From: a bacterium
GTDB taxonomy: Bacteria > UBA8248 > JACPRG01 > G963555815
Reading direction: 5' to 3'
Assembly: GCA_965261595.1 (NCBI GenBank)
Contig: CBDHDG010000004.1
Location: 640,001 to 704,000, forward strand
Length of the DNA stretch: 64,000 nt
Both the position numbers and the translations under genes were made by a program. Every line of letters starts with the position of its first letter. Position 1 is the stretch's first letter. Positions 18,401 to 62,663 of the stretch are shown piece by piece. Under the pieces are notes generated by a model that saw nothing but the letters and a program-made list of their open reading frames with translations, was not told where the DNA came from and searched no databases.

Positions 18401-18424
18401 TGCCGCCTCACGTCCGGCGGGGAC

Positions 18425-19315: not shown

Positions 19316-19344
19316 GACCTCTCTCCTTTCCGATCCTTCGGCCT

Positions 19345-26587: not shown

Positions 26588-26691
26588 CCGGCGGGGCGAG
26601 GGTGGAAATAGGGGGGGGAGCGGACCCATGATCTCCTGTCTCCCTTCGGGAAAAGGCCCGGAAGGCTCACCGTTTTGGGAGGAGTGAATTC

Positions 26692-27448
26692 ATGCGGATG
26701 CTCGACCTCAGCATCACCTTGGAAAGCGACCCCAGCCCTCTCATGAACGTGGAAATCAAGTGCCTCGACCACAAGCACGGAACCGAGGAATACAACAAGA
26801 TGGGGATCAAGACGGAAGATCTCCCGCTCGGCCTGACGTACGCGGACGACGAAGTGGAAAGCACGACCCACGGCGGGACCCATATGGACTCCCCCTGGCA
26901 TTTTCACCCCACCTGCGCGGGAAAACCCGCCCGGACCATCGACGAGATCCCGATCGACTGGTGCTTCGGGGAGGGGATCTGCCTGGATTTCCATGACCGC
27001 CCGAACGGGATGCGCCTGGAGATCGAAGACATCCGGAACAAGCTGAACGAGGCGGGCGTGACGCTGAAGCCGGGCAACATCGTCTTGTTCTACACCGGCG
27101 CGATGCACGCCTGGGAGAGAGAGGATTTCTGGGAAACGGGTTGCGGGCCCGGCCGGGACGCCACGCTCTGGATGATCGACCAGGGAATCCACGTGATGGG
27201 CACGGACGCCTGGAGCTTTGACCGCCCGTACAAGTACTGGCATCGCCGATTACAAAGAAACGGGCGACAAGTCCCTCATCTGGGAGGCCCATCTGGCCGG
27301 GATCGAGAAGGAATATTGCCACCTGGAGAAACTGACCAATCTCGACCAGCTCCCGCCCTCGGGCTTCAAAGTGGCCTGTTTTCCCATCAAGATCAAAAAG
27401 GCAAGCGCGGGGTTTGTGCGGGTCGTGGCCATGTTCGAGGACGAATAG
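26692..27448 (+). CDS. Cyclase family protein (kynurenine formamidase-like), +1 frameshift near 27241
   Basis: HGGTHMDSPWHF, GTDAWSFD; continues in another frame as WEAH...HLEKLTNLDQLP...FPIKIKKASAGFVRVVA. Confidence 0.85.
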
Positions 27449-27494
27449 GCCGCGATCCCCGCAAGTTGCGCGCCGCGTGGAGGTCGGTTCGCAG

Positions 27495-28652
27495 TCACCC
27501 GGGGCGCGCGGACAGGACCCGCTCGGGGACGCAGACGAGCCCTTCCATCAGCCGGCGGGCCGTTCGAATCACGGTGGCCTTCAAAAGCTCGCCGTCCTTG
27601 ACCTCCGCCTCCACCTCGATGACCCCCGCCGGATGGCCGATGCGGAGGGTTCGGGGAACCTCGCCCCGGGCCTCCCGGACGATGCGGTTCACGAGGGTTC
27701 CCTCGATGTAAGCCGCCGCGGCCGTGCAGATGGCGCCGGTCAGCGCGTACGCCCGGTGGGCCCGGCCCATCGAGAGCATCCGGCCCCGGAGGTCGTGACC
27801 CTCGGCCGTGATGGTCTCCCCCGAAGAGGCCGTATAATCGGCGGGCGGAGCCACCACCGCCACTTTGGGGATGGCCGGGCTTTCCGCCCGCGCGCGGACC
27901 GGGTCCATCACGAACCCGAGCTTGAAGGCGATCTCCCCCCGGATCCGCTCGAGCCGAGCCAGGACAACCTGGGCCGCCTCCATCTCCTCGGCCGTCTCCG
28001 AGCCCGTCCAGCCCACCGCCTCCGCCTCCACGAAGAACAAAGGGTTGGCGGCGTCCACAACAGAGAGGGCGAACGTCCCGTATTCGCCGATTTCGACCTC
28101 ATCGAGGGGCTTCCCAGTGGGAAGCAGCTTCCCCGTCACCGCCCCGCTGGCCCCGATGAATCCGACACGGATGGGCGCGGCCGTTCCGGGCACGCCGGGG
28201 ATGACCGTGTCTCCCCCCTCCAGAGGCGCCCCGTCCTCCACGGGTACGTCGAACTCGATGACCTTCTTCGTATTGGTGTTGAGGACGCGGACGCGTGTGA
28301 CGGGCGCCCGGGGCTCGACCCACCCATCTTCCACGGCGAACAGGCCGACGGCGGAGGAGATGTTGCCGCAGTTGTTTCGCCAATCGACGAAGGGCTGATC
28401 CAAGGAGACCTGGGCGAAGGTGTAGTCGACGTCGATGCCCTCATCACCGGAGGGCGCGACGATGGCGCACTTGCTCGTGAGGGGGTCTGCCCCGCCGAGG
28501 CCGTCGATCTGCCGGGCGTCGGGGCTTCCGAACGCGGCGAGGAGGATGCGATCCCGGCTCTCCCGGTCCTCGGGCAGGTCCTCTTCCTTGAAAAAGAGCG
28601 CCTTGCTCGTCCCGCCCCGCATGACGACGCAGGGGATCTTCACTTGCGACAT
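27495..28652 (-). CDS. PrpF-family isomerase (2-methylaconitate / 4-oxalomesaconate tautomerase-like)
   Basis: MRGGTSK, QIDGLGG...TSK, NCGNISSAVG, MLSMGRAH, GHPAG, RTARRLMEG. Confidence 0.9.
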   Translation of the reverse strand: MSQVKIPCVVMRGGTSKALFFKEEDLPEDRESRDRILLAAFGSPDARQIDGLGGADPLTSKCAIVAPSGDEGIDVDYTFAQVSLDQPFVDWRNNCGNISSAVGLFAVEDGWVEPRAPVTRVRVLNTNTKKVIEFDVPVEDGAPLEGGDTVIPGVPGTAAPIRVGFIGASGAVTGKLLPTGKPLDEVEIGEYGTFALSVVDAANPLFFVEAEAVGWTGSETAEEMEAAQVVLARLERIRGEIAFKLGFVMDPVRARAESPAIPKVAVVAPPADYTASSGETITAEGHDLRGRMLSMGRAHRAYALTGAICTAAAAYIEGTLVNRIVREARGEVPRTLRIGHPAGVIEVEAEVKDGELLKATVIRTARRLMEGLVCVPERVLSARPG

Positions 28653-38122: not shown

Positions 38123-39817
38123 CCCGCATTTCTCACCACCCACTCGGCGGATGGATTATCGGGTGTGAATTGGAGTGTTTTTTCCTGTCTGTCGCTTTTG
38201 CGGTGGAACCAGGGCCGGTGGGTGGTTGGAGTTGACCCGTGAGAGGGGCTTTTTGGCCGATTTGGCTCGGCTCCGCACGCACGTTTGCCTCGACTCCCTG
38301 CGCGTTCATTTTGCAATCTGTCTTAGACGGCGGGCTCTCCCTCCGGCCCCGCGCGCAGGTTCCGCCAGGCGTGGAAGAACACATTCATGTACGGATAACC
38401 CGTCGCAAGGGCCACGTGCACTCGCCGCACGCTCACCCGAACCTGCGCCCCGATCTTCAGCAGCCGCGTCCGCACCGTTCCACACGTTGCCTTTGCAAAC
38501 GCCGTCCCCCGAAGGCCTAGCCGACGCAACGCATGCATCAGTTCATAGGCCACCGCCGACAGGTAGAGCCGCAACTGATTGGAGCGCATCCGCGTGCACG
38601 ACGTCCGGTCCGCGTACAGGTCGAGCTGCTGCTCCTTGAGCCGGTTCTCCATCGTCCCCCGGGCGCAGTAGATGCGCTCGTACAGAGGCTTCGCGTCGAT
38701 CGCCTCCTCGTCCAGCGAAGTCACGATGAAGCGCGGATTGGCGCCCTTGGCCAGGTGCTCGGCCTTGGCGACCACCCGCCGCACCCGGCTCCAGGATGTA
38801 AGCGTCCGGTGAGGAAACGACCGGAATAACCGCGCCCCCTTCCCCGTGCTCTGATGACGCGCCTTCGCTTCGGCCAGCTCGTCCTTCACCGCTTCCTGCA
38901 GCCGGGAGGTCTTGGCCAGGCCGAACACGTAATCCACCCCCTGCGCCTCGCACCAGGCCATGATCCACTCGCGCGAGAAGTCCGAATCCGCCCGAAGCAG
39001 GATCGACACCTGCGGCCAGCGTGCCCGAATCTGGGCAACGATCCGCTCCAACTCCTCCACCACCCCCGAGGAGGCGTCGATATTGGAGGGCCGAAGCCGA
39101 GCGCACAAAAGGAAATCCCCGCAGAAGATGTAAAGCGGAAGGTAGCAGTAATGACCGTGATAGCCGTGGAAGAAACGCCCCTCCTGACAGCCGTGCACCG
39201 GGTCGTCGGTGGCGTCGATGTCCAAAACGATCCGACCCGGCGCCCGCCTCTGCGACCGAAGGAAGCCCTCCACCAACAGCCGGTCGATCGCCTCGCCTCG
39301 GTAGGCGATCTTGTGGTAGCGCTCATCGCCATCGCCCGCAAGACGCTCCAAACGGTTCAGCGTGCTCTTGCCCGCAAGGGCCGGACCCCCCTTGCGCCGC
39401 GTGGCCTCCAGCTTGCCCGAGAGGATCTGGAGCATCGGGTCAAAGCGAAGCCGCTCGTGGTCATTGACGTCCTCATAGCCAAGCGCCAGCGCGTACACCC
39501 GCTGCCGCAACAACGCCCACAACTCATCTTCCACCCGCCTCGCGTCCCGACCGTCCTCAAAACAGGCCGCGAAGCCTGCGATCAGCTTCACCCGCCCCTC
39601 GGTGTCGCGTAGCAAAAGACCGCCCGCATCAGAGGTGATCGCCCCGCCGTTGGAAGTGGCGATCACACGCCGAGAACCCAACCCTTGGAATTCCATCTGT
39701 TCTGCGATACACTGTGTGCGAGTCAAGTCGGTCTCCTTTCTTCGGGCAACCCGTTGATCAAAAAGAGTTTACCCGAAAAAAACCGGCTTGGCTCTCTTTC
39801 TTTGTGAGATATCCAGG
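38123..39817 (-). mobile_element. IS1380-family element A
   Basis: Ends CCCGCATTTCTCAC and GTGAGATATCCAGG; contains an intact transposase. Confidence 0.85.
38323..39726 (-). CDS. IS1380-family DDE transposase
   Basis: TSDAG, GYEDVND, LDIDATDD..HG.QE, LRADS, YCARGTMENRLKE. Confidence 0.92.
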   Translation of the reverse strand: MTRTQCIAEQMEFQGLGSRRVIATSNGGAITSDAGGLLLRDTEGRVKLIAGFAACFEDGRDARRVEDELWALLRQRVYALALGYEDVNDHERLRFDPMLQILSGKLEATRRKGGPALAGKSTLNRLERLAGDGDERYHKIAYRGEAIDRLLVEGFLRSQRRAPGRIVLDIDATDDPVHGCQEGRFFHGYHGHYCYLPLYIFCGDFLLCARLRPSNIDASSGVVEELERIVAQIRARWPQVSILLRADSDFSREWIMAWCEAQGVDYVFGLAKTSRLQEAVKDELAEAKARHQSTGKGARLFRSFPHRTLTSWSRVRRVVAKAEHLAKGANPRFIVTSLDEEAIDAKPLYERIYCARGTMENRLKEQQLDLYADRTSCTRMRSNQLRLYLSAVAYELMHALRRLGLRGTAFAKATCGTVRTRLLKIGAQVRVSVRRVHVALATGYPYMNVFFHAWRNLRAGPEGEPAV

Positions 39818-39897: not shown

Positions 39898-41594
39898 CCG
39901 GGATTTCCCAGATGACCACTCTTAGCCATCCTGCGGTCCTCCTGTGTCATCAAAGTACCCCATTTTACTACAGATTCAGGGTCTCTTTGCAGAACCCTCT
40001 GCTCAATCGAGGGGCAACGGCCGTCCTAAAGCCGCAATCCCTTGAAAACCCAGCTCTACCGGCACACTCAGGGGAGTTCGGCACAGACTGATCCCCCGTC
40101 TCCACCACGTCACTAAGCTTCCGGGCCATCTGCTCCGTCATCCGGTATCTGGTACGGGAGGCGGTAACCACAACCGTCGAATTCGTTCAAGGATTGCCCT
40201 GAACAGTTGACGCGGCACGGCCACCTCGGCCATCTGGAAGGTGGTGTACCGGGCGTGGGTGACCACCTTGGCCCCAATCTTAATCAGCTTCTCGCGTAAC
40301 GTCGTCAGCGACCAGTGCTTCACCGCTCTGGGCAACGCCAGCCGCCGCAGGAAGTTTGCCAGGTTGTACGCCAAGGCAAATAGTTGCAAGCGAACCTGGT
40401 TCTCTTCAAAGCCGTGGCAGGACAGGCGCGTCCAGTTCAGGGCGTACTTGCCCTCCTTGATCCACTGCTCCGCCGTCCCACGCTGGTTGTAGAACCTCAC
40501 GACGTTCTCTTCCCGCCAGTGCAGGTTGGTCACGATGAAGCTGACTCTTGGAAACAACTCGCCCTGGTGCCACTCGACCGCCACCACCACCCGGCGAGGC
40601 TTCTCCCAACTAGCCGCCTGATAGGGGAGACGCTGTGGTAGAAGATAATGGGCCTTTTGGGCGGTCGGCCAACCGGCCGGGTCAGAAGGTATTCGATGTC
40701 CCTGTACAAGATGGCGTTGGCCGGAAGCCGAATCGCATAGGAGTAGCCCTCCGCCTCAAGGTATCGGTACACCTCCGGCTTGGCAAATGCCGCGTCGCCT
40801 CGAAAAAACCGACAGACCTTCGCATCCCGGTAGCGAGCTACCACCGGCTCCAATACAGACCGCCAGTCATCAGCGCTGTGGACCTTGCCGTTGCGCAACA
40901 GCGCCCGCTCCAGATCGCCAAACTGGTTGAAGCAAAACAGTGGGTGATAGCAGGTGCAGCCGAAGTGGCCGTTGTAGGAAGAGCCTTCCTGCTCACCGTG
41001 GGTCGGGCTGACCGAACTGTCCATGTCCAGGATCAGCTTGCGAATCGGCTTGCGTTTGCGGACACGATCCACCAACACACCGGGCAGACCGCTCAGCGCC
41101 TTGAGGGGTTAAGGGGCCGGGTGAGGGTCTGCGTCTCGAATCGGCTCATCTGGCTGGTGGAGGCAGCGGTGTGATACTTCGCTCGCCCCCCAACCACCTG
41201 ACGCATGGCGGGATCGACACAGAGCCGCTCGGCATCATTGGTGTCTTTATATCCTGCCAGGCGGCTGTAGACCGACTGGCGCACCAAAGCGGTGAGGCTG
41301 TGCCGGGTGTTCCCGCCCGTCCGTGAATCGGACAGAAACCCCTCGGCCGCCTTCGTTAGCCCCAACACCTCATCCAGTTCACGATAGGCAAGCAAACCGG
41401 CGTCACTCGTAACCTTTGCTCCATGAAACTCCAGCCTGAGCCGACCGTCGAATTGGAGCCTCAACGGCCTCTTTTTCGCTTCACCCATCGGGTCCCCTCG
41501 CAAGATGATGGCAGGGAGAGGCCAACACCTTGATTTTACACGAGAAAACGGCCTTCGGGGCGTTAATAATTATCATCCATATGGGAAATGCGGG
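39898..41594 (-). mobile_element. IS1380-family element B (distinct from A)
   Basis: Ends CCGGGATTTCCCAGATG and CATATGGGAAATGCGGG; TCGA duplicated at 38119-38122 and 41595-41598 around A+B. Confidence 0.85.
40138..41488 (-). pseudogene. IS1380-family transposase, frameshifted (near 41090 and 40630)
   Basis: Three consecutive ORF pieces with TSDAG, LDMDSSVSPTHGEQE, RGDAAF and YNQRGTAEQWIKEGK. Confidence 0.85.
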
Positions 41595-43627: not shown

Positions 43628-43917
43628 CGAATTTCCCGCAAGTCGCCGGAAGCCGTTCCAACGCCTTAACGAGGTTCAAGTCCCGTGCCTTTTTTCGAGG
43701 ATTTCCGGGAGATCTTAAATTCGCGTTATCATGGACATATAAACATTTATAAAACAACATGTTAATATATAAATATTAATTTAATTTATTAAATTAATGA
43801 GCGGCGCTTCCTGTGAATTCGATGCAGGCGTTTTTGTTCGGGGAGAGGAAAAATCTTCCACGGCATGAAGGGTTTGCCGTTCCGGAGGAAGGCCGGCGGG
43901 TGGCCACGTCGCCCTTT

Positions 43918-44985
43918 TCACCGCGAAACATCGTCCCACAGCTCGACCGCCCGCCCCTCCCGGAAAGACCGATACGCGGCGAGGACGAAGGCCAGGGCCC
44001 GCCGCCCATCGTCCCCGGACAGATCCGCCGTTTCAGCGGCCGGAACCTCCCCGGCGGACATCGCGGATTGCCGGGCCCTCACCCCCCGCAAGAACTCGGC
44101 GTGCATCGCCGTGAAACCCGTCCGGTCTCTCGGGGACAAGAGATGAATCCTCCTCTTTTTTCCCGCAAGATAGAGAAAGTAGCCGTGGTTCTCGATATAA
44201 AGCGTCCCCTCCGTCCCGGAGACCGAGGAAAACTGCACCTTGCCGGGGGCCGGGATGCCCCAGGAATGGGTCAATTCCCCGACAACCCCGCCCTCATGCT
44301 CGCTGATGATGTGCACCGTATCCTCGAGGGGGACGCCCTCGCGGGTCTTCGGACCCCGGACGGCATAGACCTTCTTCGCCGCTCCAGCCAGACAGAACAA
44401 GGTGTCCACCCAGTGGATTCCCCCGTCCAGGAGCGCGCCGCCGCCCATCCGTTCCACATCGGTCCGCCATCCGCCATGCCTTGAGAGCTCCGAAATCTTC
44501 ACCCGGGCGCACTTCACCCGGCCAACGGCCCCCGCCTCGATGAGCCGCCGGGCCTTCCGGACGCTGGGTTTGAACCGGAAGTTCTCGGCCACCATCAGAA
44601 CACACCGGCCGCCGGTCTTCGATTCCGCCGCGCGGACGGCCCGGATGATTTCGTCGGCCTCCTCCAGCGTCCGTCCGAGGGGTTTTTCCATCAAAACGTG
44701 GACGCCGCGGGACGCGGCCAAAAGGGCGTGTTCAACGTGGAGATTGTGAGGCGTGCAGATGACAGCGGCGTGGACCCGCTCATCCCCGAGGGCCTGCTCG
44801 TGGGACCCGAAGCCGGCGTCCCCTCCGAACCGCGCCCGATACGTCTCGGCTTTTTCGGCCGAGCGGCTGGCGAAGAACAGCCGGGGTCTGTCTTTCAGAC
44901 GGCGGAGAGCCGCCGCGTGTCTGGGGGCGATCCCTCCGCATCCCACAATGCAAATACCGAGGGGTGAACGTGATTGGGCGGTCAA
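43918..44985 (-). CDS. Gfo/Idh/MocA family oxidoreductase
   Basis: IVGCGGIA, ICTPHNLH, HVLMEKP, GGGALLDGGIH. Confidence 0.9.
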   Translation of the reverse strand: MTAQSRSPLGICIVGCGGIAPRHAAALRRLKDRPRLFFASRSAEKAETYRARFGGDAGFGSHEQALGDERVHAAVICTPHNLHVEHALLAASRGVHVLMEKPLGRTLEEADEIIRAVRAAESKTGGRCVLMVAENFRFKPSVRKARRLIEAGAVGRVKCARVKISELSRHGGWRTDVERMGGGALLDGGIHWVDTLFCLAGAAKKVYAVRGPKTREGVPLEDTVHIISEHEGGVVGELTHSWGIPAPGKVQFSSVSGTEGTLYIENHGYFLYLAGKKRRIHLLSPRDRTGFTAMHAEFLRGVRARQSAMSAGEVPAAETADLSGDDGRRALAFVLAAYRSFREGRAVELWDDVSR

Positions 44986-51278: not shown

Positions 51279-51884
51279 ATGTCACGGAAGCGAAGCCTTT
51301 GGGCCGCGCTCATCGCGTGGGTCCTTCTCGTTCCGCCGGCCCCAGGCCCGGCGGCGGCGAAGAAAGACCGGGGAAAATATTCCTCCTCCTCCTCCCCCTT
51401 TCGGATTCTCAAGCGCCGTCCGAAGTTCGGTCTCGTCCGATTCCCGAAAGCGCGCCCCTCGCCTGAATTCAGCCTCCCGGATCTCGAAGGGAAAATCGTC
51501 CGCCTTTCGGACCTTCGCGGCAAGGTGCTGGTCTTGAATTTCTGGGCCACCTGGTGTCCCCCCTGCGTGGAAGAAATGCCCAGCCTCGAGAAGCTCCACC
51601 GGCATTTCCAGGGAAGGCCGTTCGAGGTGGTCGCTGTCTCGGTAGACGCCGAAGGTGTGGAGAAGGTCCGGGAATTCGTGAAAAAAGGAGGATTCACCTT
51701 CCGGGTCCTGCACGACCGGAAAAAGACGACGGAGCGCCCTTTCGGCGTCCGCGGCCTTCCGATCTCCTACGTGATCGACACCAAAGGGAGGATGGTGGCG
51801 GGGGCCATCGGGGCCAAGGATTGGGCCTCGAAGAAGGCTTACGCGTACTTCGAGGGGCTTTTGAAGGGTGTTTCGAGCCCATAG
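51279..51884 (+). CDS. Exported TlpA/ResA-family disulfide reductase
   Basis: Signal peptide; LNFWATWCPPCVEEMP; GLP cis-Pro loop. Confidence 0.9.
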   Translation: MSRKRSLWAALIAWVLLVPPAPGPAAAKKDRGKYSSSSSPFRILKRRPKFGLVRFPKARPSPEFSLPDLEGKIVRLSDLRGKVLVLNFWATWCPPCVEEMPSLEKLHRHFQGRPFEVVAVSVDAEGVEKVREFVKKGGFTFRVLHDRKKTTERPFGVRGLPISYVIDTKGRMVAGAIGAKDWASKKAYAYFEGLLKGVSSP

Positions 51885-52071: not shown

Positions 52072-52860
52072 ATGGCTCGTCATGGTCTCCGCGTAATCGT
52101 CCTCCTCCCCCTCCTCCCCTTCCTCGCCGGCTTCGCCGGGATTCTCGCCGAGACATGGGGTCAGGCGGGAATTCCCCGCGACGATGCTCCGATGGCCCGG
52201 GTCCCCGCCGGTGTATTCCTGATGGGCGATTCGCGCGGGGCGCTCACCGAGCGGCCCCAAATCCGGGTCCACCTGGACGCCTTCGAGATCGACGTTCACG
52301 AAGTCACGAACGTGCGGTACGCCCGGTTCATGCGGGCGCGGCGCAAGACGGGAAGACCCGTCAGGACACCCGATTATTGGGACTCCCCCGCATTGAATCC
52401 GCCGCGGCATCCCGTGGTCGGGCTGACTTGGCAGTAGGCCCGGGCCTACTGCGCCTGGGCCGGAAAACGCCTTCCCACCGAGGCCGAATGGGAAAAGGCC
52501 GCGCGCGGAACGGACGGTCGGAGGTATCCGTGGGGGGACGCCTTCGGCGCCGGCAGGGCCAACGCCGCGCCGGCGGGTCTGAACCGGCCGGCGCCGGTGG
52601 GGTCCTTTCCTTCCGGGCGAAGTCCGTACGGACTGGAGGACATGGCGGGAAACGTCTGGGAGTGGACGGCCACGCCTTACGGGGCTTACTACTACCGGGT
52701 CTCTCCCCCGCGGAATCCCCGGGGCCCTCGTGACGGATGGCTGAAGGTCATTCGCGGCGGTTCCTGGATGAACGGGCCGGATCAGGTCCGGACGAGCGTG
52801 CGCTTCCGGCTGGACCCCGTCGTGAAATGGAAGCGCGTGGGCATGCGCTGCGCCCGCTGA
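52072..52860 (+). CDS. Exported FGE-sulfatase-domain (SUMF1/NirV-like) protein interrupted by an in-frame TAG at 52435-52437
   Basis: [75 protein letters not shown] all in one frame. Confidence 0.8.
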
Positions 52861-53021
52861 CCCGAAGGGCGCCCGGTTCTCATCATTCCAAAGCCGGAAA
52901 CGGACAGAATAATCCAATTGAGAATTTGTTGACCCTATTAAATAATGACGGATCTCCCGTCTTCAGAGGATTTGTTCCCCTGACGACAAGAAAAGACGAG
53001 GATCCGAAGAAGGGACGTTTG

Positions 53022-53743
53022 GTGAATCGAATTCGATGGATGGCCCTGGGGATTGTGCTCCCCGCGATGTTCTGGACTTTTTCCGCGTGGGGTTACGAGG
53101 TCGTCGAGGTAAAGGACGGCGGCGCGGTGAGCGGAACAATCACATTCGAGGGACAGGCCCCGGCGCCGAAAGAATTGCGCGTCACCAAAACGAAAATGTC
53201 TGCGGGGTGAAGCCCTTATTTTCCCAGGAGTTCGTCGTCTCCAAGAAGGGGGCGCTCAAGAACGTCGTGATTTCGCTGGTCGGCGTTGAAAAGGGCAAGG
53301 CCTTCAAGAAGAAATCCGCCCGGCTGATTCAGCGGCAGTGCATGTTCGTCCCGCACGTCGCCCTGATCCCGGTCGGAAAGCGGTTCAAACTCGTCAACGA
53401 GGACAAGCTCCTCCACAACCTCCGGACCCTATCGAAAGAGAACGTCGCCCTGAACATCGCCCACCCGAAGTTCAAAAAGACCCTCCGGATCAAGAAGAAG
53501 TTCAAGAAACCCGAAATCATGCGGATCAAATGCGACATCCATTCCTGGATGGACGGGTGGATCATCGCCATCGCTCACCCCTACTACGTCGTATCCAAAA
53601 AGTCCGGCCGGTTCACCCTGAAGAACGTCCCCCCGGGCGCATACAAGCTCCGGGCCTGGCACGAGATCCTGGGCGAACAGGTCCAAACCGTCACGGTCCC
53701 CGCCGGCGGAGAGGTGAAGGCCGATTTCACTTTCAAGAAATAG
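53022..53743 (+). CDS. Exported cupredoxin-like / carboxypeptidase-regulatory-like domain protein, frameshift near 53190
   Basis: Signal plus GAVSGTITFEG, then in the next frame QRQCMFVPHV, N.D..LHN, KCDIHSWM, HPYY, G.FTLKNVPPGAYKLRAWHE. Confidence 0.75.
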
Positions 53744-53753: not shown

Positions 53754-54905
53754 ATGAGCCCCCTGCCGCCCTCCGGCGCCCGAGCGCGCTCCGCGAGCCG
53801 TTCGCGCCCCTCCGCCCAAGGGCGATGCCCCCGCCTTGGGCGGGCCTGTCGCGCCCTCCTCGCGGGATTCCCCGCTCCGTCTTCCGCCCACCACGTCAAG
53901 ATGCGGTCCGGCCCCTTCGGCGGAATGGTCAGCTCCATTTCCATCCACCCCTCGGACCCGCGAAGGATTTACGCGGGGGTCTTCGGCACTGGTGTCTTCG
54001 GCGCGGGGGTCTACCGCTCGGACGACGGCGGGACCCTTTGGACCGCGAAATCCAGGGGCCTGACGGACACCGGCGTCTACAGCGTCCTCGTCCTCCCGGC
54101 AGGCGGAACCGTCCTGGCGGCCACGAACACCGGGGTTTTCCGGTCCGTGGACGGGGGTGAATCGTGGAAGCCGTCGAATCGCGGACTCCCCGATACAGGG
54201 GTCCGGATGTTCGCCCCCCTGTCCGAAAGCCACATCCTGGCCGCAACCGGGTCGGGGGTGTTTCGCAGCCGCGCCGGGGGAAAGACCTGGGCGGATGCGT
54301 CCGAAGGGCTCACAAACCAGGACGTCCGATGGCTTACCGTCGAGCCCGACGCGAAGAGAACGATCTTCGCGGCCACCTTCGGGGGCCTTTTCGAGAGCCG
54401 GGACGGCGGACGGACCTGGCGGGAAAAGGGTCTCTCCCTCCCCCCACTGCGCACGGCCATTGTGGCGGCGGGGGGACGGACGGTGATCGCCGGTTCGGCG
54501 AACCGGGGCGCCTTCATCAGCCTGGACGGGGGCGCGACGTTCAAACCCGCGAATGAAGGCCTCCCCAGCCCCTACATCATGGCCCTCGGATTCTCGGCGG
54601 CGGCGGGGGAGGAAGAAGGAGCAGAGGGATCTCCACCCATCTTCCTGGCCGGGACCCTCGGCGGATTGTACGTGAGCCGCAACGGAGGAAGCCGTTGGAA
54701 TTACCTGTCGAGCGACATGACGAACCTGTCCATTACGGCCTTCGCCGTCCATCCGAAGGACCCGAAGATGATTTTCGCCGCCACCGGCGGCCTGATCTTC
54801 CGGACGGCCGATGGAGGCCGCACTTGGACGAACCAGGCGCGCTGGGTGATCCATCATGCGGGGAGATTGAATCCGGCGCGGGGAAAATCCTTCGCCGGCC
54901 GGTGA
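53754..54905 (+). CDS. BNR/Asp-box beta-propeller protein (VPS10/YCF48-like); true start uncertain
   Basis: Multiple SxDGGxTW repeats (RSDDGGTLW, RSVDGGESW, ESRDGGRTW, ISLDGGATF, VSRNGGSRW, TADGGRTW). Confidence 0.8.
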   Translation: MSPLPPSGARARSASRSRPSAQGRCPRLGRACRALLAGFPAPSSAHHVKMRSGPFGGMVSSISIHPSDPRRIYAGVFGTGVFGAGVYRSDDGGTLWTAKSRGLTDTGVYSVLVLPAGGTVLAATNTGVFRSVDGGESWKPSNRGLPDTGVRMFAPLSESHILAATGSGVFRSRAGGKTWADASEGLTNQDVRWLTVEPDAKRTIFAATFGGLFESRDGGRTWREKGLSLPPLRTAIVAAGGRTVIAGSANRGAFISLDGGATFKPANEGLPSPYIMALGFSAAAGEEEGAEGSPPIFLAGTLGGLYVSRNGGSRWNYLSSDMTNLSITAFAVHPKDPKMIFAATGGLIFRTADGGRTWTNQARWVIHHAGRLNPARGKSFAGR

Positions 54906-54999: not shown

Positions 55000-55719
55000 A
55001 TGAAAGGGAGAAACCGGAAGTGGTTGGGCGTTTCCTTGCTGGCCCTGGCGTTTGCCGTCAGCGGGCCGATGGGCTGGACGCAAACGTCCGACGCCGCAAA
55101 GAAGGCCAATCCATGTAACCCATGCGCCGCGAAGAAGGGAAATCCGTGTAATCCGTGCGCGGCCAAGGGAAATCCATGCAATCCCTGCGCGGCGAAGAAG
55201 GCCAATCCGTGCAACCCATGTGCGGCCAAGAAGGCCAACCCATGCAACCCGTGCGGGGTCAAAGCCAAGGCGAATCCGTGCAACCCGTGCGCGGCCGGCG
55301 GCGGCCGGAAGGGCCCCCGGGCCAAGGCCCGGATGATCATCGGGAAGGTGCTCTACGCGAAAGGCAATTACGTGGCGGTCCAGTGGAAGGGCGCGAAAAT
55401 CAACATCGGCGTCCACGCCAAAACGCAGTACTCCCGCGGACCCGCCAAATCCTCCCTCGGCTCGATCAAGCCGGGAGAGCGGATCATCGTTTCGATGATG
55501 GATCGGGGCGGCAAACTGAGCGCCAACTACGTCTACCTGTCCAAGGCCTCGAAGGGCGGAAACCCCTGTAACCCATGCGCGGCCAAAGGGAATCCCTGCA
55601 ACCCGTGTGCGGCCAAGAAGGCCAACCCGTGCAACCCATGCGCCGCCAAAGGAAATCCCTGCAATCCATGCGCGGCGAAGAAGGCCAACCCGTGCAACCC
55701 GTGCGCGGCCAAAAAGTGA
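55000..55719 (+). CDS. Exported protein with 6 N-terminal and 5 C-terminal NPCNPC repeats flanking a small beta-rich (OB-fold/DUF5666-like) domain
   Basis: GGGAGG RBS, signal peptide, 11 NPCNPC units (22 Cys); core GKV...V...T.Y.....SLGSIKPGERIIV.......A..V. Confidence 0.85.
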   Translation: MKGRNRKWLGVSLLALAFAVSGPMGWTQTSDAAKKANPCNPCAAKKGNPCNPCAAKGNPCNPCAAKKANPCNPCAAKKANPCNPCGVKAKANPCNPCAAGGGRKGPRAKARMIIGKVLYAKGNYVAVQWKGAKINIGVHAKTQYSRGPAKSSLGSIKPGERIIVSMMDRGGKLSANYVYLSKASKGGNPCNPCAAKGNPCNPCAAKKANPCNPCAAKGNPCNPCAAKKANPCNPCAAKK

Positions 55720-55805
55720 TTGCGGCTTGTGCCGACGGATTCCGAGCGGGATTCGAAAGAGACGCGTCCAAACGCGGAACACTCGAACTCAAGGGAGGTC
55801 AATCA

Positions 55806-56435
55806 ATGCTTCGATCATGGACGAGGGTCTCGGCGGCCCTCCTCGCAGCGGTGGTGATGACGGCCGGGACGGCCGCAATCGCCTCCGCCCAGAAAAAGAA
55901 GACCATCCCCATGGGGCCCTATTTTCAAACGCTCCAGAAGGATGCGTCCATCGCCGCCGCCATCAAGCGGGGAAAGCGGCAGTTCAACCAACTGGGTTGC
56001 GCTGGCTGTCATCCGCGCGGGGGCACCATCGGCGGAACCGCCCGGGCGGTCGACGGAAGCCCGGTGCCCGTTCCCATTCCCCAGCTCGTGGGCGCGGCCC
56101 TTCACTACCCGCGCCTATCGATGACGGGGTTCGCGGCGAACATCGGCATCATGAACGACCTCTGAAACACGATCTTTCTCGGCCGTGAGCCGATGGATCC
56201 CAATTCCCAGCAGTACATGGACCTGTACGCCTACGTCGCCTCTCTTACACCGGCGGTCAAAAAGGAGATGCTCCGGTGGGAGAAAGAGCGCCAGGCCCTG
56301 ATGAAGAAAATCATGAGCAAGGGCGGGGGCGGCAAAGGCAACCCCTGCAACCCGTGCGCGGCCAAAGGGAACCCGTGCAATCCTTGCGCGGCCAAGAAGG
56401 CCAATCCGTGCAACCCATGCGCGGGGAAGAAGTAA
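55806..56435 (+). CDS. Exported c-type cytochrome selenoprotein (209 aa, Sec at codon 120, UGA 56163-56165) with a C-terminal NPCNPC tail
   Basis: GGAGG RBS, signal peptide, CAGCH heme motif, then IMNDL-U-NTIFLGREPMDPNSQQYMDLYAYVASL in frame, ending with 3 NPCNPC units and TAA. Confidence 0.8.
56166..56199 (+). promoter_or_regulatory. Bacterial SECIS-like hairpin
   Basis: GATC...TCGGC-CGTGA-GCCGA..GATC; loop G 20 nt after the UGA. Confidence 0.65.
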
Positions 56436-56460
56436 GAAACGCACGCTGTTTGATATAATT

Positions 56461-56498
56461 GAAAGGGGGACGGTTGCGAGGCCGTCCCCCTTTCGATT
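56461..56498 (+). terminator. Strong hairpin, probable terminator or mRNA stabiliser after the Sec cytochrome
   Basis: 13-bp perfect stem GAAAGGGGGACGG / CCGTCCCCCTTTC. Confidence 0.6.
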
Positions 56499-56552
56499 TG
56501 GTTCCGCGAAAAAATTCGGCGCGGATGAACACTGAAGATGGATGGAGAAACG

Positions 56553-57317
56553 ATGAACGCATTCCGGAGACTCTTCGTCGGCGGCATTTTCCTGGCCGTC
56601 GGGTGGGCGGCGTCGCCCGCGATAAGCGCCGAAATCAAGGGCGACCTGGAACAGGGCAAAGACGTCTACGAGGAGATCTGCTTCTCATGCCACGGCGCCA
56701 GAGGGGACGGGAAGGGCCCGAGCTTCCGGAACACGATGCCCTACCCCCAGGTTTTCGCGAATCCCAACTACATGAAGCGCCTGACGCCGCAATACATGTT
56801 CGACGTGGTGAAGTTCGGCAAGCTCGCCGTCATCAAAGGCGAGAAGCAGACCGGGAAGTACGACGTCCTGCCCATGCCCGGGTTCGAGGATTCCCTGGAG
56901 GACGGGGAGATCCGCGGTCTGATCGCCTATGAGAAGTTTCTCCTGACCGGAAAGTGGAACCCACCCAAAGGAAGTGAATTCACGCAAGCGGATATGAAGG
57001 AGTACTTCGACGGGGCCTGCGCCGAGTGCCACGGCCCGAAGGGCAAGGGAAACGGGGACAAGGCGGTCGGAAAGCAGGACCCCGGCAAACCGTTCGTCAG
57101 CGTCGCCCAGCCCGCGCCCGCCGACCAGACCGACCCCCTCCTCATGGCCCGGTTCAACGACGAGTTCATCTTCTGGCTGATCAAGAAAGGCCGCATCGCC
57201 GTCACCGAAGAGAAGAACTTCGACATCATGAAACCCTACGGACACGTCATGAGCGACGAGGAGATCTGGAGCGTCGTGCGGTACGTGTGGGAAACGTATA
57301 TCGAAAAGAAAAAGTGA
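56553..57317 (+). CDS. Diheme c-type cytochrome
   Basis: Signal peptide; CFSCH...MPGF and CAECH...MKPY (Met axial ligands). Confidence 0.88.
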   Translation: MNAFRRLFVGGIFLAVGWAASPAISAEIKGDLEQGKDVYEEICFSCHGARGDGKGPSFRNTMPYPQVFANPNYMKRLTPQYMFDVVKFGKLAVIKGEKQTGKYDVLPMPGFEDSLEDGEIRGLIAYEKFLLTGKWNPPKGSEFTQADMKEYFDGACAECHGPKGKGNGDKAVGKQDPGKPFVSVAQPAPADQTDPLLMARFNDEFIFWLIKKGRIAVTEEKNFDIMKPYGHVMSDEEIWSVVRYVWETYIEKKK

Positions 57318-57385
57318 GGCGGGCTTCTCGGAAAAGAGAAGCGGCCGACCCGTCCGGCGTTCGTTCTTCGAGGCGCGCGGCAATC

Positions 57386-58597
57386 CTACGGAAGCAGAAT
57401 CGTTCTATCGTACAGGACATACGGCGAAGACATCGCGTGGGCGCGGGCCTTCTCGATCAGTCCGCGCGCCCGGGCGCTCATCCGGCCCTGGAGAAGCGAA
57501 GGGAAGAACGTCGCGCCGTAGTAATCGTCGGGATGGACCTCCACGAAGACGTGGAGGCGCTTCGCCCCCCGGGGGTTGGGCGCGTTGTAGTCGAAGACGC
57601 GGGTCTTCCCGGGGGGGATGCGCGTGTCCGACCGCTCGACCCAGCCGCCTTCGTATTCAAGCCGGCGTTGGATGCGGTCCGCCCGGCGGCTCCCCTCGAT
57701 GGTCTTTCCATTCTCGTCGAGCAGCTCCACCTTGATGAAGACGGCCGGAATCATGTACGTCGGAAACATGTGACCCGCCCCGGTGTTGGTCAGGGTGATT
57801 CGCGCGACGGCCCGGCCCGGAACGGCCTCCTTCCCCCGGGGGACCACAACGCCCAGCGTCACCGCCCGGGCCGTCATCTCCTTGTCGTGAATGCCCCGCC
57901 ACAGGTGCTTGCGCCCCGGCATGTGGCAATCCTGGCACTGAACGCCCAGCTTTGAATACGGCCCTTCTTTCCACTCCACATACGTGTTCTCAATCGGCTT
58001 TCCGTTAACGGCCGCCGACATCGGATGCTGGTGGCACGTCCGGCAAAACTCCGACCGCTCGAAGGCGGTCGTCCGGGTTACGCCTCCGTGGGGCGATTTC
58101 TCCACGCTGGGTCCAAGGGATTTCCCCGCCTTCGGCGGGCCGAACCGCTCGTGCCCCCGCACGTGACAAGCGGCGCAGATCAGCCCCCCCTTCTCCAAAT
58201 CTTTCACGTAGCCCTCGTTCCTGACGACCGTCCCCGACCGCCCGACCCGATAAGGCTGCTGCTCGGCCAGGGGGGCGTGACAACCCACGCAGTCCTCCGC
58301 CCCGGCGGGATTGTCCACCCACTGGCCGACCACGCCCGGGCCCATGGCCTTGGCGTGAAGACTCGTCTTCCAGTCAGCGAGCTGGGCGGGGTGGCAAGCC
58401 CCGCAGGACTGGGGATCGAGCGCGCTTTCCAAGGGAGAGAACCCTTTGGGCGGCTTCCCGTTGGGCGCGAACGGAGATTGCCAGTGCTTGGCGACGAACG
58501 CTTCGATCGCCGGGTCCGGCGACTGGGCCGGGGCCTGGTCCGAAGAGAGCAGGAAGAAACCGGCGCAAGCGACGACGCGAAAAAATGTTTGCCGCAT
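57386..58597 (-). CDS. Pentaheme c-type cytochrome (c554/c552-like)
   Basis: Signal peptide; CGACH, CVGCH, CAACH, CRTCH, CQDCH; W..S.HA; GAGHMFPT. Confidence 0.88.
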   Translation of the reverse strand: MRQTFFRVVACAGFFLLSSDQAPAQSPDPAIEAFVAKHWQSPFAPNGKPPKGFSPLESALDPQSCGACHPAQLADWKTSLHAKAMGPGVVGQWVDNPAGAEDCVGCHAPLAEQQPYRVGRSGTVVRNEGYVKDLEKGGLICAACHVRGHERFGPPKAGKSLGPSVEKSPHGGVTRTTAFERSEFCRTCHQHPMSAAVNGKPIENTYVEWKEGPYSKLGVQCQDCHMPGRKHLWRGIHDKEMTARAVTLGVVVPRGKEAVPGRAVARITLTNTGAGHMFPTYMIPAVFIKVELLDENGKTIEGSRRADRIQRRLEYEGGWVERSDTRIPPGKTRVFDYNAPNPRGAKRLHVFVEVHPDDYYGATFFPSLLQGRMSARARGLIEKARAHAMSSPYVLYDRTILLP

Positions 58598-58672: not shown

Positions 58673-59017
58673 ATCAGAATCCAGCCGAAATCAACAATCG
58701 ATTGCTACTTCTTGGCCGCGCAAGGATTGCAGGGGTTGGCCTTTTTCGCCGCGCACGGGTTGCAAGGATTGGCCTTCTTCGCAGCGCACGGGTTGCAAGG
58801 ATTGGCCGCCACCTTGGCCGCGCACGGGTTTGCAGGGGTTGGCCTTTTTCGCGGCGCACGGGTTGGCCTTCTTGTGCCAGGCCGCGTCACTCACCCCGGA
58901 TCCCGCGACGAACAGGACCGCGACCGCCGCCACCAGGAAACTACACAACAGTCCCCCGCTCTAGGGTTTTGTTGGACACTCGATTGATCCATGATTCATG
59001 GAGAAAGGGGTGTCGCG

Positions 59018-59404
59018 ATGAACGAACAAAAGCAAGAGGGGGCTTTGGCGGAGGGCGCCCGCAGGGCGAACGGAGCCAAGGCCCCAGGGCATCGCAGTGA
59101 GCGGGGTCGGTTCTCCTGCCAGCGCAAGCGGGAGGCGGTCCTGCGTCTTTTGCGGGGCGAGAGCCTGGAGACGCTCTGCCGCGAGTTGGGCACGACAGCG
59201 GCTCGGCTTTCCGCCTGGCGCGAGGCGTTCCTTCGCGGGGGCGAGGCGGCGCTCAAAGCCCGCCCGGCGGATGAGCGGGACGAGGAGAACGCCCGGCTCA
59301 AGGCCAAGGTGGGCGAACTCACGATGGAGGGCGAGGTCCTGCGGGAGAAGATCGACCGCCTGGAGGCCGGCCGCCCTTTAGCCGGCAGGAGGTGGAGGCG
59401 ATGA
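59018..59404 (+). CDS. IS3-family transposase OrfA
   Basis: Near-identical to 22087-22473. Confidence 0.85.
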   Translation: MNEQKQEGALAEGARRANGAKAPGHRSERGRFSCQRKREAVLRLLRGESLETLCRELGTTAARLSAWREAFLRGGEAALKARPADERDEENARLKAKVGELTMEGEVLREKIDRLEAGRPLAGRRWRR

Positions 59405-60309
59405 GTCAGGCCCGCTTCACCTCCACGGGCAGAGCCTACGGCCTGAAGCGGGTGTGCGCCCTTTGGGGCTTGGCGCGCTCCACGGTCTACGCGCAACGGC
59501 GGCGAGAGGCGGTCCCCGTTCATGAACGCCCCACGCCCAATAAGCGCGGCCCTGTGGGCCCGTGCACCGATGCGGAACTCCTCGGCCACATCCGGCAGGT
59601 CCTGGAGGACTCTCCCTTCCATGGCGAGGGCTACCGCAAGGTGTGGGCGAGGCTGCGCTTCGCGGGCATCCGCACCAGCAAGGAGCGGGTGCGTCGCCTG
59701 ATGCGGGAGGCGGGGCTTCAGGCCCCCCACCGGGTGGGCAAACCCCGAGGTCCCAAGGCCCACAACGGGACCATCCGCACCGAGCGGCCCGACCGAGTGT
59801 GGGGCACGGACATGACGACGACGGTGACCACCGAGGAGGGGATGGCCTCGGTGTTCGTGGCGGTGGATCACTGCTCGGTGGACTGCGTGGGGATCCATGC
59901 GGCCAAGAGCGGCAACCGCTTCGAGGCCCTGGAGCCGATCCGGCAGGGGGTCGCCGAGCGCTTCGCCGGCTTGGAGGCGGACGTCGCCGAGGGGCTTAAA
60001 GTTCGTCACGACCACGGCCCCGCCTATCTGTCCGATGACTTTCAGCGGGAGATCGCCTACCTGGGCATGACCAGTTCGCCCAGCTTCGTGCGGGCGCCCG
60101 AGGGAAATGGCTACTGTGAGTGGTTCATCCGCATCTTGAAGGAGAATCTCCTGTGGGTGCGCTCTTTCGCCACCGTAGAGGAACTGCGGTGGGCGCTGCT
60201 TGAGTTCAAGAACCTGTACAACCATCATTGGATTCTCGAGGGCTACGGCTACCGAACGCCGGCCCAGGCAAGGCAGGAAAAACTCGCTCAAGTTGCGGAG
60301 GCCGCATGA
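59401..60309 (+). CDS. IS3-family transposase OrfB
   Basis: Near-identical to 22470-23378; DDE motifs. Confidence 0.9.
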   Translation: MSQARFTSTGRAYGLKRVCALWGLARSTVYAQRRREAVPVHERPTPNKRGPVGPCTDAELLGHIRQVLEDSPFHGEGYRKVWARLRFAGIRTSKERVRRLMREAGLQAPHRVGKPRGPKAHNGTIRTERPDRVWGTDMTTTVTTEEGMASVFVAVDHCSVDCVGIHAAKSGNRFEALEPIRQGVAERFAGLEADVAEGLKVRHDHGPAYLSDDFQREIAYLGMTSSPSFVRAPEGNGYCEWFIRILKENLLWVRSFATVEELRWALLEFKNLYNHHWILEGYGYRTPAQARQEKLAQVAEAA

Positions 60310-60797
60310 GGTCGAATACCCTCACCCGAGTGTCCAATAACCCAGGGGCGGTCCAACAGTTTCTTCATGCTCTCTTCTCCCTCTCGTTTTGTAATGGTTC
60401 CCACTTGGAAGACAAAGATTGACCGTCCGGATCACTCGGGCGCCGGATTGAGGGCTTCCCCGGAGACTCGACTTCATCCCCTCTCCCCCTGGATTCAAGC
60501 ATCGCCACTTCTCTGATAACCAAAAAGAAGAGGAGAAATTTCATGGATCGTTGAAATCGTCTAAATTTTTCTTCCACCGGCCTTACCCCCGGCAGGCCGG
60601 ACATCCGGGCCAACCTTGCCCGGCCCGAGCGCAAAGTCATTCCTCCGCCCCTTCAGGACCGCGCGTTCTCATTCGGAGGCTGATATACTGGCAAGGGAAC
60701 CATCACCCGAACCCGACCCAAGAACCTTTGAACGCTCCACTTCGGCCGGGATCCCCCGGATTGCAGGCCCATCGTTTCATGCGGAGGAACCGAGCCC

Positions 60798-61458: not shown

Positions 61459-62663
61459 TTACTTGCTGATCGTTATCGTGGGGGCGAAGGCACCGGAGAC
61501 GTCCGTCAGCGTCATCTGGAAAAGTTGGTAGAGAAGGATGAAGGCCCGCTTGTCCCACCGCGTATCACTCACGGAATAGTGCCGATCCCTGAACGACGCC
61601 TGGGCGATGTGGGAGGGAGGGGGACTGCCGGTCACCCGGATCGCCAGCGTCCGCTTCGGGTTGGAATCGACCTTGCCGGTGCGCGGGTCTTTTTCCACGT
61701 CAAATTCGGGAATCCGCTCGACTTCGTCTCCCAGGAATTGAGTGATGAGGTTCAGGCTGCGGAGCTTAATCGCCCCGAAGAAGGAATAATCGCCACCGGG
61801 GCGCCCCGGCCGGATATCCACGAGAATGAAACTTTCCGGCCTGGAATTCGCCAACCGGTTGAGCTCCGCCCGTTCGGCGTTGCTCAATTTGCGCGGGTCA
61901 TAGTTCGACACCAGGACCCGGCCGACCACCTTCCTGCGAAGCTCGTATGTCGTATTCTTTCCCGCCGTATTTCCTACGGGTCGAAGCCTGTATCCCATCT
62001 CCCGCGCCTTTATGAGATCCATCGCCGGCGGCGGTTTCGACAGCTTCATCCCCAGCGACTCTTCAAAGGTGATCCGGGAGACAAACAGCTTTCTTTGCCC
62101 GTTCAGCCAAGTCCAGTGCAGGACCCGCCTGCGGAATTCTTTGTATTCCTCCGTCTTGTCGGGAGAATTCAGGATGAAGCCTTGAAACGCTCCGTCACGA
62201 TTTCGGATTTCGATCCCCCGCGCCATCAGCCGCGTCACCATGTCGAATCGCGCGCCTTGAATCAGAAGAAACTCGAATTTCCTTTCGTCCATCGGGGTCA
62301 AGACACGCTTCGTGAATTCCTCGCCCTGTATGGGGACGATGCTGAGCGTCGGGTTCTCCGCCACGCTTGACCCAAGACTCAACTCCAGCGAATCGCTCCC
62401 GGGAAATGCCAGGGTTCCCGTAAGCCCGATTTGTGTGCGGAAATCGAATGTCGCCGCGATGCTCGATGGACCGTGAAGTGACTCGGCAGATCATTGTGCT
62501 TCCGGGCGATGTTGAGCAGGAGCATCTCCCGATCCAGCCGGCTGATGGTCTCGTCGTAACCCAACACCGCCTGGTGGAGCGCCACCGGCCCCAAACACCC
62601 TGCCAAAAGAGGAAACAGAAGTAAGGACGCCAAGCGGAGCAGGGTGGGACGAAAACTTTCCAT
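61459..62663 (-). CDS. Hypothetical lipoprotein, frameshifted near 62380-62470
   Basis: Lipobox LAGC, MLLLNIAR; downstream ORF AENPTLSIVPIQGEEF...APTITISK appears to continue it. Confidence 0.55.

Follow-up and report, generated by a model that had tools for sequence, protein, structure and literature searches.

Heme c groups ligated by a histidine and a cysteine are rare catalytic centres of sulfur metabolism. In AvTsdA, the TsdA thiosulfate dehydrogenase / tetrathionate reductase of Allochromatium vinosum, the ligands of heme 1 are reported to be His53 and Cys96, and mutation of Cys96 abolishes activity in both directions (PMC6879331); in a second study, an S-thiosulfonate intermediate is reported to form on this ligand cysteine (PMC4423706). 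A gene of related type is described here from a 64-kb stretch of bacterial DNA (contig CBDHDG010000004.1, positions 640,001 to 704,000; hereafter the window, with positions counted from its first letter). The gene, at 55806-56435 on the forward strand, carries one in-frame UGA and very probably belongs to a genuine, unannotated selenoprotein family. It combines two known kinds of protein, a His/Cys-ligated cytochrome of the SoxA family and a selenoprotein in which selenocysteine (Sec) replaces a catalytic cysteine.

Selenium and heme have been described together in other settings. In MccSep, a pentaheme selenoenzyme of Geobacter sulfurreducens, the ligand of the active heme is Cys239, and Sec325 is reported to be essential without being a ligand (PMC13510729). 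The first native Sec-ligated P450, from ncCYP family M, is reported in preprint form to have been found as TGA-truncated sequences with a selenocysteine insertion sequence (SECIS) close downstream (PMC11703216; 10.1101/2024.12.22.630014). In the table of families of a 2026 review of the prokaryotic selenoproteome, the only 'cytochrome' entries are ExtKL, a GSU2204-family CXXCH protein and an octaheme cytochrome of the tetrathionate-reductase family (PMC13188914). The literature searched, which excluded subscription journals and supplementary tables, contained no report of a c-type cytochrome with a natural Sec ligand, nor of SoxA or TsdA in a Sec form; it is possible that the family has been listed earlier in selenoproteome surveys under an uninformative name.

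Reading frame across the UGA codon

The coding sequence contains a single in-frame TGA (56163-56165, codon 120), past which the frame stays open to a TAA at 56433-56435. Open reading frame (ORF) calling with translation table 11 splits the gene into two same-frame ORFs, one ending at 56165 and the other covering 56193-56435. A sequence-only reading of the window had proposed that these two fragments, parted only by the UGA, form one putative selenocysteine-containing c-type cytochrome. Its description of the fused frame is borne out in each respect: the signal peptide, the CAGCH motif and the absence of any further stop until 56435 are all seen, and the motif M-N-D-L-U followed by GREPMDPNSQQYMDLYAYV is present in the protein exactly as it was given. 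The gene and its parts are as follows.

55791..55798, forward strand: Shine-Dalgarno-like AAGGGAGG, 7 nt ahead of the ATG at 55806, read from the sequence
55806..56435, forward strand: probable selenoprotein coding sequence, 209 residues plus TAA, with Sec as residue 120; frame kept in 36 loci of the genome scan described below
55806..55889, forward strand: signal peptide, residues 1-28, with an A-S-A end; cleavage site judged by eye, model helix at residues 2-26
55998..56012, forward strand: heme c attachment motif C65-A-G-C68-H69, invariant in an alignment of 49 sequences
56163..56165, forward strand: UGA, probable Sec codon (U120), placed by the TGA/Cys column in the loci and by profile alignment to TsdA Cys96 and SoxA Cys114/Cys222
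56166..56336, forward strand: cytochrome part after the UGA (NTIFLGREPMDPNSQQYMDLYAYVASLTP...) and long C-terminal helix, delimited by substitution ratios and model helices
56176..56197, forward strand: SECIS-like hairpin of 8 pairs with one bulged U; apical loop CGUGA at 56184-56188
56337..56432, forward strand: Cys/Lys-rich C-terminal tail of three (G/A)NPCNPCA(A/G)K(K) repeats
56457..56498, forward strand: terminator-like hairpin with a 19-bp stem, then UUUCGAUUU; -36 kcal/mol, z = -4.9, 0 of 200 shuffles as stable

The terminator-like hairpin was not among the calls of a consensus terminator scan and was found by separate folding. The Pfam Cytochrom_C match covers residues 53-147 and 89 of 90 model positions (E 3e-4), and it crosses the UGA. 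Besides Sec120, the mature domain has no cysteines other than the pair of the CxxCH motif, all others lying in the C-terminal NPC tail.

Public databases hold the family in truncated form. A word-indexed protein search gave 177 matches, and among the best 120 of these every homologue is 114-134 residues long and ends at N-[D/N]-x, the residue before the UGA column (120 of 120 on both counts); the names they carry are 'hypothetical protein', 'c-type cytochrome', 'cytochrome c peroxidase' and similar. Since all 120 stop before the TGA, the family is systematically truncated in public annotation, in line with the expectation in the sequence-only reading that gene callers would split such a gene. 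An exhaustive search of representatives at 50% identity gave 70 matches, which include full-length homologues that span the UGA position (P0123, with 53% identity, P0124, P0126, P0128 and others) and post-UGA fragments called as separate proteins (P0130, P0142, P0151, P0162 and P0177, 43-82% identical to the window protein). Thirty-eight of the 70 have no residue at the column, being truncated or matching around the CxxCH only. In the remaining 32, an alignment to the family hidden Markov model places Cys at the column in 30 and Gly in two (P0158 and P0175); Trp occurs in none.

The same picture emerges at the DNA level. One scan of a species-representative genome collection found 37 loci, one of which (L037) is cut off ahead of the UGA column. 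The codon at this column in the 36 informative loci is TGA in 26, as in the window, and TGC or TGT in ten (L009, L012, L013, L014, L018, L020, L021, L024, L029 and L030). Cysteine at the UGA column, which the sequence-only reading had named as the thing to look for in homologues, is thus found in both genes and proteins. The codon is followed by a conserved protein block, NT[IV]FLGREP[ML]DPNSQEY.DL.AYVASLTP. Constraint was measured in the 25 Sec-type sequences whose downstream DNA is long enough (300 pairs). Across the 40 codons that follow the UGA, these have in frame a mean proportion of synonymous differences (pS) of 0.61 and of non-synonymous differences (pN) of 0.17, a ratio of 0.28; the ratio is 1.47 and 2.19 when the same codons are read off frame. 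By this measure the reading frame past the TGA evolves under purifying selection. Taken together, the TGA and Cys loci, the homologues and the in-frame constraint rule out a sequencing error, a genuine stop and a nonsense mutation of recent date.

In searches of the bSECISearch type, a bacterial SECIS element is a stem-loop that follows immediately on the 3' side of the UGA and whose apical loop contains G and lies about 16-37 nt further on. The hairpin at 56176-56197 fits these rules: it starts 11 nt past the TGA, and its apical loop starts 18 nt past the TGA and has G at its second position, close to the 20 nt at which the sequence-only reading had placed a G-containing loop. It is also conserved. 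In a gap-free alignment of the 25 Sec-type sequences, the helix lies in columns 14-21 and 27-35 (UUCCUYGGC / CGUGA / GCCRAUGGA, with a bulged U), and 95% of its cells are paired, as against 14.5-47.5% once its 3' partner has been shifted by one to three columns. Pair 18-30 covaries, being U-A in 13 sequences and C-G in 12 and unpaired in none, and it couples two synonymous third-codon positions, of Leu CUY and Pro CCR. Other third positions within the hairpin are frozen: C in Gly+6 (25 of 25) and U in Arg+7 (24 of 25), both fourfold degenerate sites, and G in Glu+8 (25 of 25). Fourfold sites outside the hairpin (Pro+12, Ser+14, Leu+20, Ala+22, Val+24, Ser+26 and Leu+27) use three or four bases each. 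A strong hairpin stands at the same place in two of the ten Cys-type genes, L009 (6590-6650, -25.3 kcal/mol) and L012 (685-745, -17.4 kcal/mol). These may be either relics of a Sec-encoding ancestor or by-products of the I-G...P-M codons, and since they occur without a UGA, part of the pairing is imposed by the protein sequence.

A second gene of the same clusters, which encodes a TlpA-like protein, provides an independent indication that UGA is decoded as Sec in some of the organisms concerned. In eight loci TGA stands in this gene where the first Cys of the CxxC motif would be encoded (W-U-P-H/Y-C, in the context FWATW-U-PHC), followed by a GGAGGGA...UCCCUCC hairpin; the sites are L004 4950, L015 6555, L016 7559, L017 3269, L019 7111, L022 7528, L026 1437 and L031 7571. 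UxxC in a thioredoxin fold is a classic selenoprotein arrangement, so these genes speak for Sec decoding in the organisms of those eight loci.

When the single-UGA ORFs of the window were screened with read-through, only one besides the cytochrome looked real. This OsmC-like ORF (10808-11305, forward strand) has a UGA at 10985-10987 within ..GYGG-U-GLLTL.., a stem-loop directly after it and a later C-P motif. Its Pfam OsmC match spans the UGA, and it has a sub-threshold NCBIfam match to 'OsmC-related (seleno)protein' (48 bits against a cutoff of 95). The UGA stands at what we take to be the first conserved, peroxidatic Cys of OsmC. Three of its four database homologues are truncated to C-terminal fragments, and the fourth (P0194) has W at the UGA. 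The ORF is a candidate selenoprotein. No Pfam domain crosses the UGA in the read-through ORFs at 56538-57521, 15355-16524, 61459-62598, 43789-44985, 26515-27711 and 17570-19438, among others. The frame at 17300-19390 on the reverse strand, with a TGA at 18425-18427, holds a DUF6282 ORF followed in the same frame by a class-V aminotransferase (PhnW-like) ORF; as the TGA separates the two domains and is closely followed by a Met, these are most likely two adjacent genes.

Two other accounts of the UGA in the cytochrome gene have to be weighed against selenocysteine. If the TGA were a true stop or a nonsense mutation, the product would be a cytochrome of 119 residues and the downstream ORF would be separate or dead. 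This is how gene callers annotate the family in every case among the matches listed; TGA ends other window genes normally, and the window has its broken genes, for example an FGE-like gene with an in-frame TAG. The same TGA nevertheless recurs in 26 independent loci of several phyla, the frame downstream is conserved under purifying selection, and Cys homologues run contiguously across the position. The junction also lacks a start codon, the first ATG coming nine codons on, inside the conserved block, and both the Pfam cytochrome c domain and the confidently modelled fold require the helices after the UGA. A true stop is for these reasons scarcely credible. Just as hard to sustain is the notion that the UGA is read as another amino acid, through reassignment to Trp or Gly or through near-cognate read-through. 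Its support comes from P0194, the OsmC-like homologue recorded with W, which means that at least one pipeline has translated TGA as Trp. Against it, TGA terminates neighbouring genes both in the loci and in the window, where it is the stop of the gene just upstream (55717-55719) and of the diheme cytochrome gene just downstream (57315-57317); homologues have Cys and never Trp at the column, a conserved hairpin lies at SECIS distance, and the same clusters contain a UxxC thioredoxin-fold gene of classic type.

Protein family and heme-ligand position

The sequence-only reading had compared the protein with a SoxA-type pattern that would place Sec at the distal heme ligand or catalytic Cys. The pattern is real. 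When a profile of the family was searched against all sequences of the Protein Data Bank (PDB), it matched SoxA of Rhodovulum sulfidophilum (1h31_A, E 5e-11), a bacterial di-heme peroxidase (3o5c_A, E 7e-11), TsdA of A. vinosum (4wq7 and related entries, E 1.3e-9) and SoxA of Paracoccus (2c1d_A, E 2.6e-6). In the profile alignment, the family CxxCH falls on C49-H53 of TsdA, the heme 1 site, and on the CxxCH of SoxA. The Sec/Cys column, located by counting residues in the alignments, corresponds to Cys96 of TsdA and, in SoxA, to Cys114 of the first domain and Cys222 of the second, so that the proposed correspondence to a ligand or catalytic cysteine holds at the level of alignment. Both SoxA residues are reported to be heme ligands in the 2002 structure paper.

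Conservation within the family points to no other residue as sixth ligand. The alignment of 49 sequences, which comprises Sec forms, Cys forms and distant Cys homologues, has invariant columns at G56, C65, C68, H69, G72, L94, P102, C/U120 and L140; none of these columns is a Met, a Lys or a second His that could act as an alternative ligand. The invariant or nearly invariant Met of His/Met class I cytochromes c has no counterpart, Met116 being replaced by Leu, Phe, Gln, Ile or Val in many members. An AlphaFold2 model built from this alignment has a mean predicted local distance difference test score (pLDDT) of 91.6 and a predicted template modelling (TM) score of 0.77, with pLDDT >90 in the helices 113-124, 135-146 and 149-169. 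In the PDB its fold is matched best by the TsdA entries and by di-heme peroxidases, the latter over their C-terminal domain, with a probability of ~1.

Fold and ligand position make the protein a member of the SoxA family. It is highly probable that its Sec stands at the position homologous to the ligand cysteine, and the alignments suggest that Sec120 probably ligates the heme iron in the resting protein. As Sec120 occupies the place of a Cys that is both ligand and nucleophile, the resting cofactor is most likely a His69/selenolate heme c. The whole is likely to be a periplasmic monoheme cytochrome of the SoxA/TsdA family, exported by the Sec pathway, with Sec120 in the place of the ligand cysteine.

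The protein could also be a genuine selenoprotein in which Sec120 is a redox residue beside a heme that is five-coordinate or ligated by Met116 or His100. MccSep offers a precedent, its Sec being reported to lie 3.6 Å from the heme-ligating Cys and not to be a ligand itself (PMC13510729). A ligand that leaves the iron, as that of TsdA does in catalysis, would suit such an arrangement (PMC6879331, PMC4423706), and Met at position -4 from the column is the family consensus (MNNxC). The column aligns, however, with the ligand Cys of TsdA and SoxA and not with a neighbouring residue. Met116 gives way to Leu in 12 of the 25 Sec forms and to F, Q, I or V in Cys forms, His100 is substituted in distant members, and the family conserves no Cys, Met, Lys or second His that could substitute as ligand. 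A Sec that stays off the iron throughout is accordingly a distinctly unlikely reading, and a His69/selenolate heme remains the preferred one.

Several observations weigh against this preferred reading. The Cys ligand of TsdA is reported to be labile and to dissociate during catalysis (PMC6879331, PMC4423706), and by analogy Sec120 may spend part or most of its time detached from the iron. The model contains no heme, and its structural matches have a Foldseek E of ~0.03 and a query-normalised TM of 0.42-0.46, the query including the signal helix and the long C-terminal helix. Gly at the column in two of the 32 informative representatives means that the ligand is not universal across the wider superfamily. 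The thiosulfate-binding residues of TsdA, reported as Arg109, Arg119 and Ser127 in precursor numbering (PMC4423706), map in the profile alignment to about T107, M116 and F124, where the family consensus is not basic; as these residues are not conserved, the chemistry may differ from that of TsdA, and the name 'thiosulfate dehydrogenase' is not warranted. As for decoding, no selA, selB or selD gene (Pfam, 73 ORFs) and no tRNA-Sec gene (tRNA scan, 0 genes) is present within the 64-kb window. The hairpin is short, and its single covarying pair reflects perhaps few evolutionary events. In the window sequence alone it is not significant, with a minimum free energy of -17.9 kcal/mol (z = -1.16) and 23 of 200 shuffles folding as well, and it gains weight only from the alignment of the 25 Sec-type sequences. 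Nor did it match an Rfam family, either in a scan of the whole window at gathering thresholds or in one of 56130-56280 at E up to 10; this last result was given no weight, because bacterial SECIS elements are poorly covered there.

Gene cluster, distribution and other features of the window

The genes around the cytochrome were compared among the 37 loci by tblastn searches with the neighbouring proteins of the window, together with family scans.

51279..51884, forward strand: TlpA/ResA-like periplasmic thiol:disulfide oxidoreductase, WCPPC in the window; from family scans
52072..52860, forward strand: FGE-sulfatase-like gene with an in-frame TAG at 52438-52440; relatives in 17 loci
53036..53743, forward strand: protein with a CarboxypepD_reg-like domain (Pfam); conserved in 8 loci
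53754..54905, forward strand: BNR/Sortilin-type beta-propeller protein, from family scans; upstream in most loci
55000..55719, forward strand: NPCNPCAAKK-repeat protein with a signal peptide, repeats, a central domain of ~80 residues and repeats again
56553..57317, forward strand: diheme cytochrome c (Pfam Cytochrome_CBB3 and Cytochrom_C)
57386..58597, reverse strand: pentaheme c-type cytochrome (NF040886, 51.6 bits against a cutoff of 250); in 13 loci

In 29 of the 37 loci, the next gene downstream is that of the diheme cytochrome c; five of the remaining eight reach a contig end first, and three have no match. The second, electron-transfer heme is not in the polypeptide of the Sec cytochrome itself, and the diheme protein is a candidate electron-transfer partner. 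The pentaheme cytochrome is a distant relative of ExtKL and MccSep, with no extra Cys or Sec. No SoxX, SoxYZ or SoxB gene was found in the cluster by the family scans.

Cys-rich repeats are a recurrent feature of the cluster. Matches to the repeat protein (55000-55719), low-complexity repeats included, adjoin the cytochrome gene in most loci. Neither this protein nor the NPC repeats belong to a Pfam or NCBIfam family, and for the central domain the ESM Atlas label 'putative DUF5666' was set aside, its best score of 0.85 being below a meaningful level. The tail of the cytochrome itself varies among loci, from none in the Methylomirabilota forms, which have a separate repeat protein nearby, to more than 30 NPCAAK units in L029 (5986-7023). 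The repeats may bind metal or chalcogen or form a carrier arm. NPCNPCAAKK/NPCAAK repeats also occur in the window in a fragmentary ORF at about 58691-58948 on the reverse strand.

The FGE-like frame runs on intact past its TAG. Across the 17 loci with relatives, the corresponding column is D or E in 14 (E in L001) and G or Y in two, and the alignment of L017 begins after it; the TAG could be a nonsense mutation, making the gene a pseudogene, or an assembly error. A frame at 52155-53210, read with TGA as U, looks off-frame and non-coding; the actual gene there is the FGE-like gene, which is read in a different frame.

A quick maximum-likelihood tree of the 49 sequences, with 23 Sec-form rows and an arbitrary midpoint root, shows the Sec forms as a grade over Nitrospinota, Tectomicrobia, Thermodesulfobacteriota/Myxococcota ('Deltaproteobacteria'), Binatota, Acidobacteriota, Methylomirabilota/Rokubacteria and Chloroflexota. 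Nine Cys forms make up one clade (Shimodaira-Hasegawa-like approximate likelihood-ratio support of 100) nested among the Sec forms, and the distant Cys homologues fall on the opposite side of the midpoint root. The tree requires three Sec/Cys changes, whose direction it does not show because the root is arbitrary. The nearest relative of the window protein, with 78% identity, is that of L001, a contig of a metagenome-assembled genome from Nitrospinota which is syntenic with the window from the glutamate dehydrogenase gene through the MoCoBD gene. In L001 a second in-frame TGA (6862-6864) parts the cytochrome domain from the NPC-repeat tail, which continues in frame to a TAA; this codon may encode a second Sec, be read through or truncate the protein.

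Mobile elements are also present. An IS3-family element occurs in two copies (22021-23424 and 58952-60355) that are 99.6% identical over 1404 bp, each carrying ORFs for HTH_Tnp_1 and rve and bounded by 19-nt inverted ends. The second copy lies at the edge of the cytochrome cluster, beside the fragmentary reverse-strand NPC-repeat ORF, and has no match in L001. A DDE_Tnp_1_4 transposase gene is intact at 38323-39726 (reverse strand, 467 aa), and a second copy at 40138-41078 (reverse strand) is split into parts of 150 and 182 aa. Elsewhere, a DUF3891 match at 14510-15305 (forward strand) extends over two overlapping ORFs in different frames, which cover profile positions 1-37 and 45-217; this suggests a frameshift or a mis-set start.

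Proposed mechanism and comparison with described systems

A mechanism can be proposed by analogy with TsdA and SoxAX. The UGA at 56163-56165 would be decoded as selenocysteine by SelB, guided by the hairpin at 56176-56197, and Sec120 would replace the Cys that serves in TsdA and SoxA as distal heme ligand and catalytic nucleophile. The selenolate would leave the iron on forming a covalent Se-S (or Se-Se) adduct with a chalcogen substrate, the chalcogenolate either attacking a sulfur or selenium substrate or being attacked by it. The heme would then relay two electrons to the neighbouring diheme cytochrome c, which would serve as SoxX or TsdB does, and from there they would reach the pentaheme cytochrome; a reduction would take the reverse path. 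With selenium, the ligand would be more nucleophilic and would leave more readily, and the potential of the heme would be lower. More speculatively, the Cys/Lys-rich (NPCAAK)n arms, fused or neighbouring, could be the thiol substrate or carrier, as is the arm of SoxY, and the TlpA-like reductase could be the resetting system that keeps them reduced. What the analysis shows is the UGA with its conserved coding frame, the Cys homologues, the hairpin, the homology to the ligand cysteine and the conserved operon; ligation of Fe by Se, the route of the electrons, what the repeats do and the nature of the substrate are all inferred.

A bolder proposal, which we put forward as doubtful, is that the protein contains the first natural His/selenolate c-type heme and forms the catalytic core of a hitherto undescribed system for chalcogen transfer in the periplasm, present in seven phyla or more. 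The (NPCAAK)n arms would then act as swinging carriers of the SoxY type, loaded and unloaded via Se-S intermediates on the heme ligand; the TlpA-like protein, often a UxxC selenoprotein, would reset the arms, and the di- and pentaheme cytochromes would join the system to the respiratory chain.

If the ligation is as suggested, it would provide a native selenolate-ligated c-heme to set against TsdA and SoxA, and a third distinct natural combination of selenium and heme after MccSep and the Sec-ligated P450 of the preprint. Compared with Cys, Sec would be expected to lower the potential, to act as the better nucleophile and leaving group and to resist over-oxidation. Hundreds of database entries are truncated at the UGA, and a family model would repair annotation in several mostly uncultured, environmentally important phyla. 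The conserved operon points to an uncharacterised periplasmic redox process in nitrite oxidisers, relatives of methanotrophs and groundwater bacteria.

With the N-terminal catalytic domain of TsdA (4wq7) the protein shares a periplasmic class I-like cytochrome c domain with CxxCH, the blocks 'FP..., ...C, ...S.E..DL.AY..' and the alignment of U120 on Cys96. Unlike TsdA, it has Sec for Cys and one heme in place of two, the missing second heme domain being presumably supplied by the separate diheme cytochrome; the two Arg and the Ser that bind thiosulfate are not conserved, and the protein is extended by a long C-terminal helix and an (NPCxxK)n tail. SoxA acts on a Cys of the flexible arm of its partner SoxY, to which the Cys-rich arms encoded in the window could be parallel; in contrast to SoxA, the window protein has a single domain, Sec for Cys and other operon partners.

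Like MccSep and ExtKL, it is a c-type cytochrome selenoprotein, and the Sec of MccSep likewise stands at a His/Cys-type heme in sulfur or selenium redox chemistry. In the window protein, however, Sec appears to be in the ligand position itself, and the folds and heme numbers differ: it has one CxxCH and not five, with no NCBIfam match to ExtKL and a weak one to ExtS (19 bits against a cutoff of 100). The Sec-ligated P450 resembles it in having Sec in place of the axial Cys heme ligand and in being represented by TGA-truncated sequences. That enzyme is a heme b thiolate monooxygenase whose sole ligand is Sec, whereas the cytochrome described here has a covalent c-type heme with a trans His and is periplasmic.

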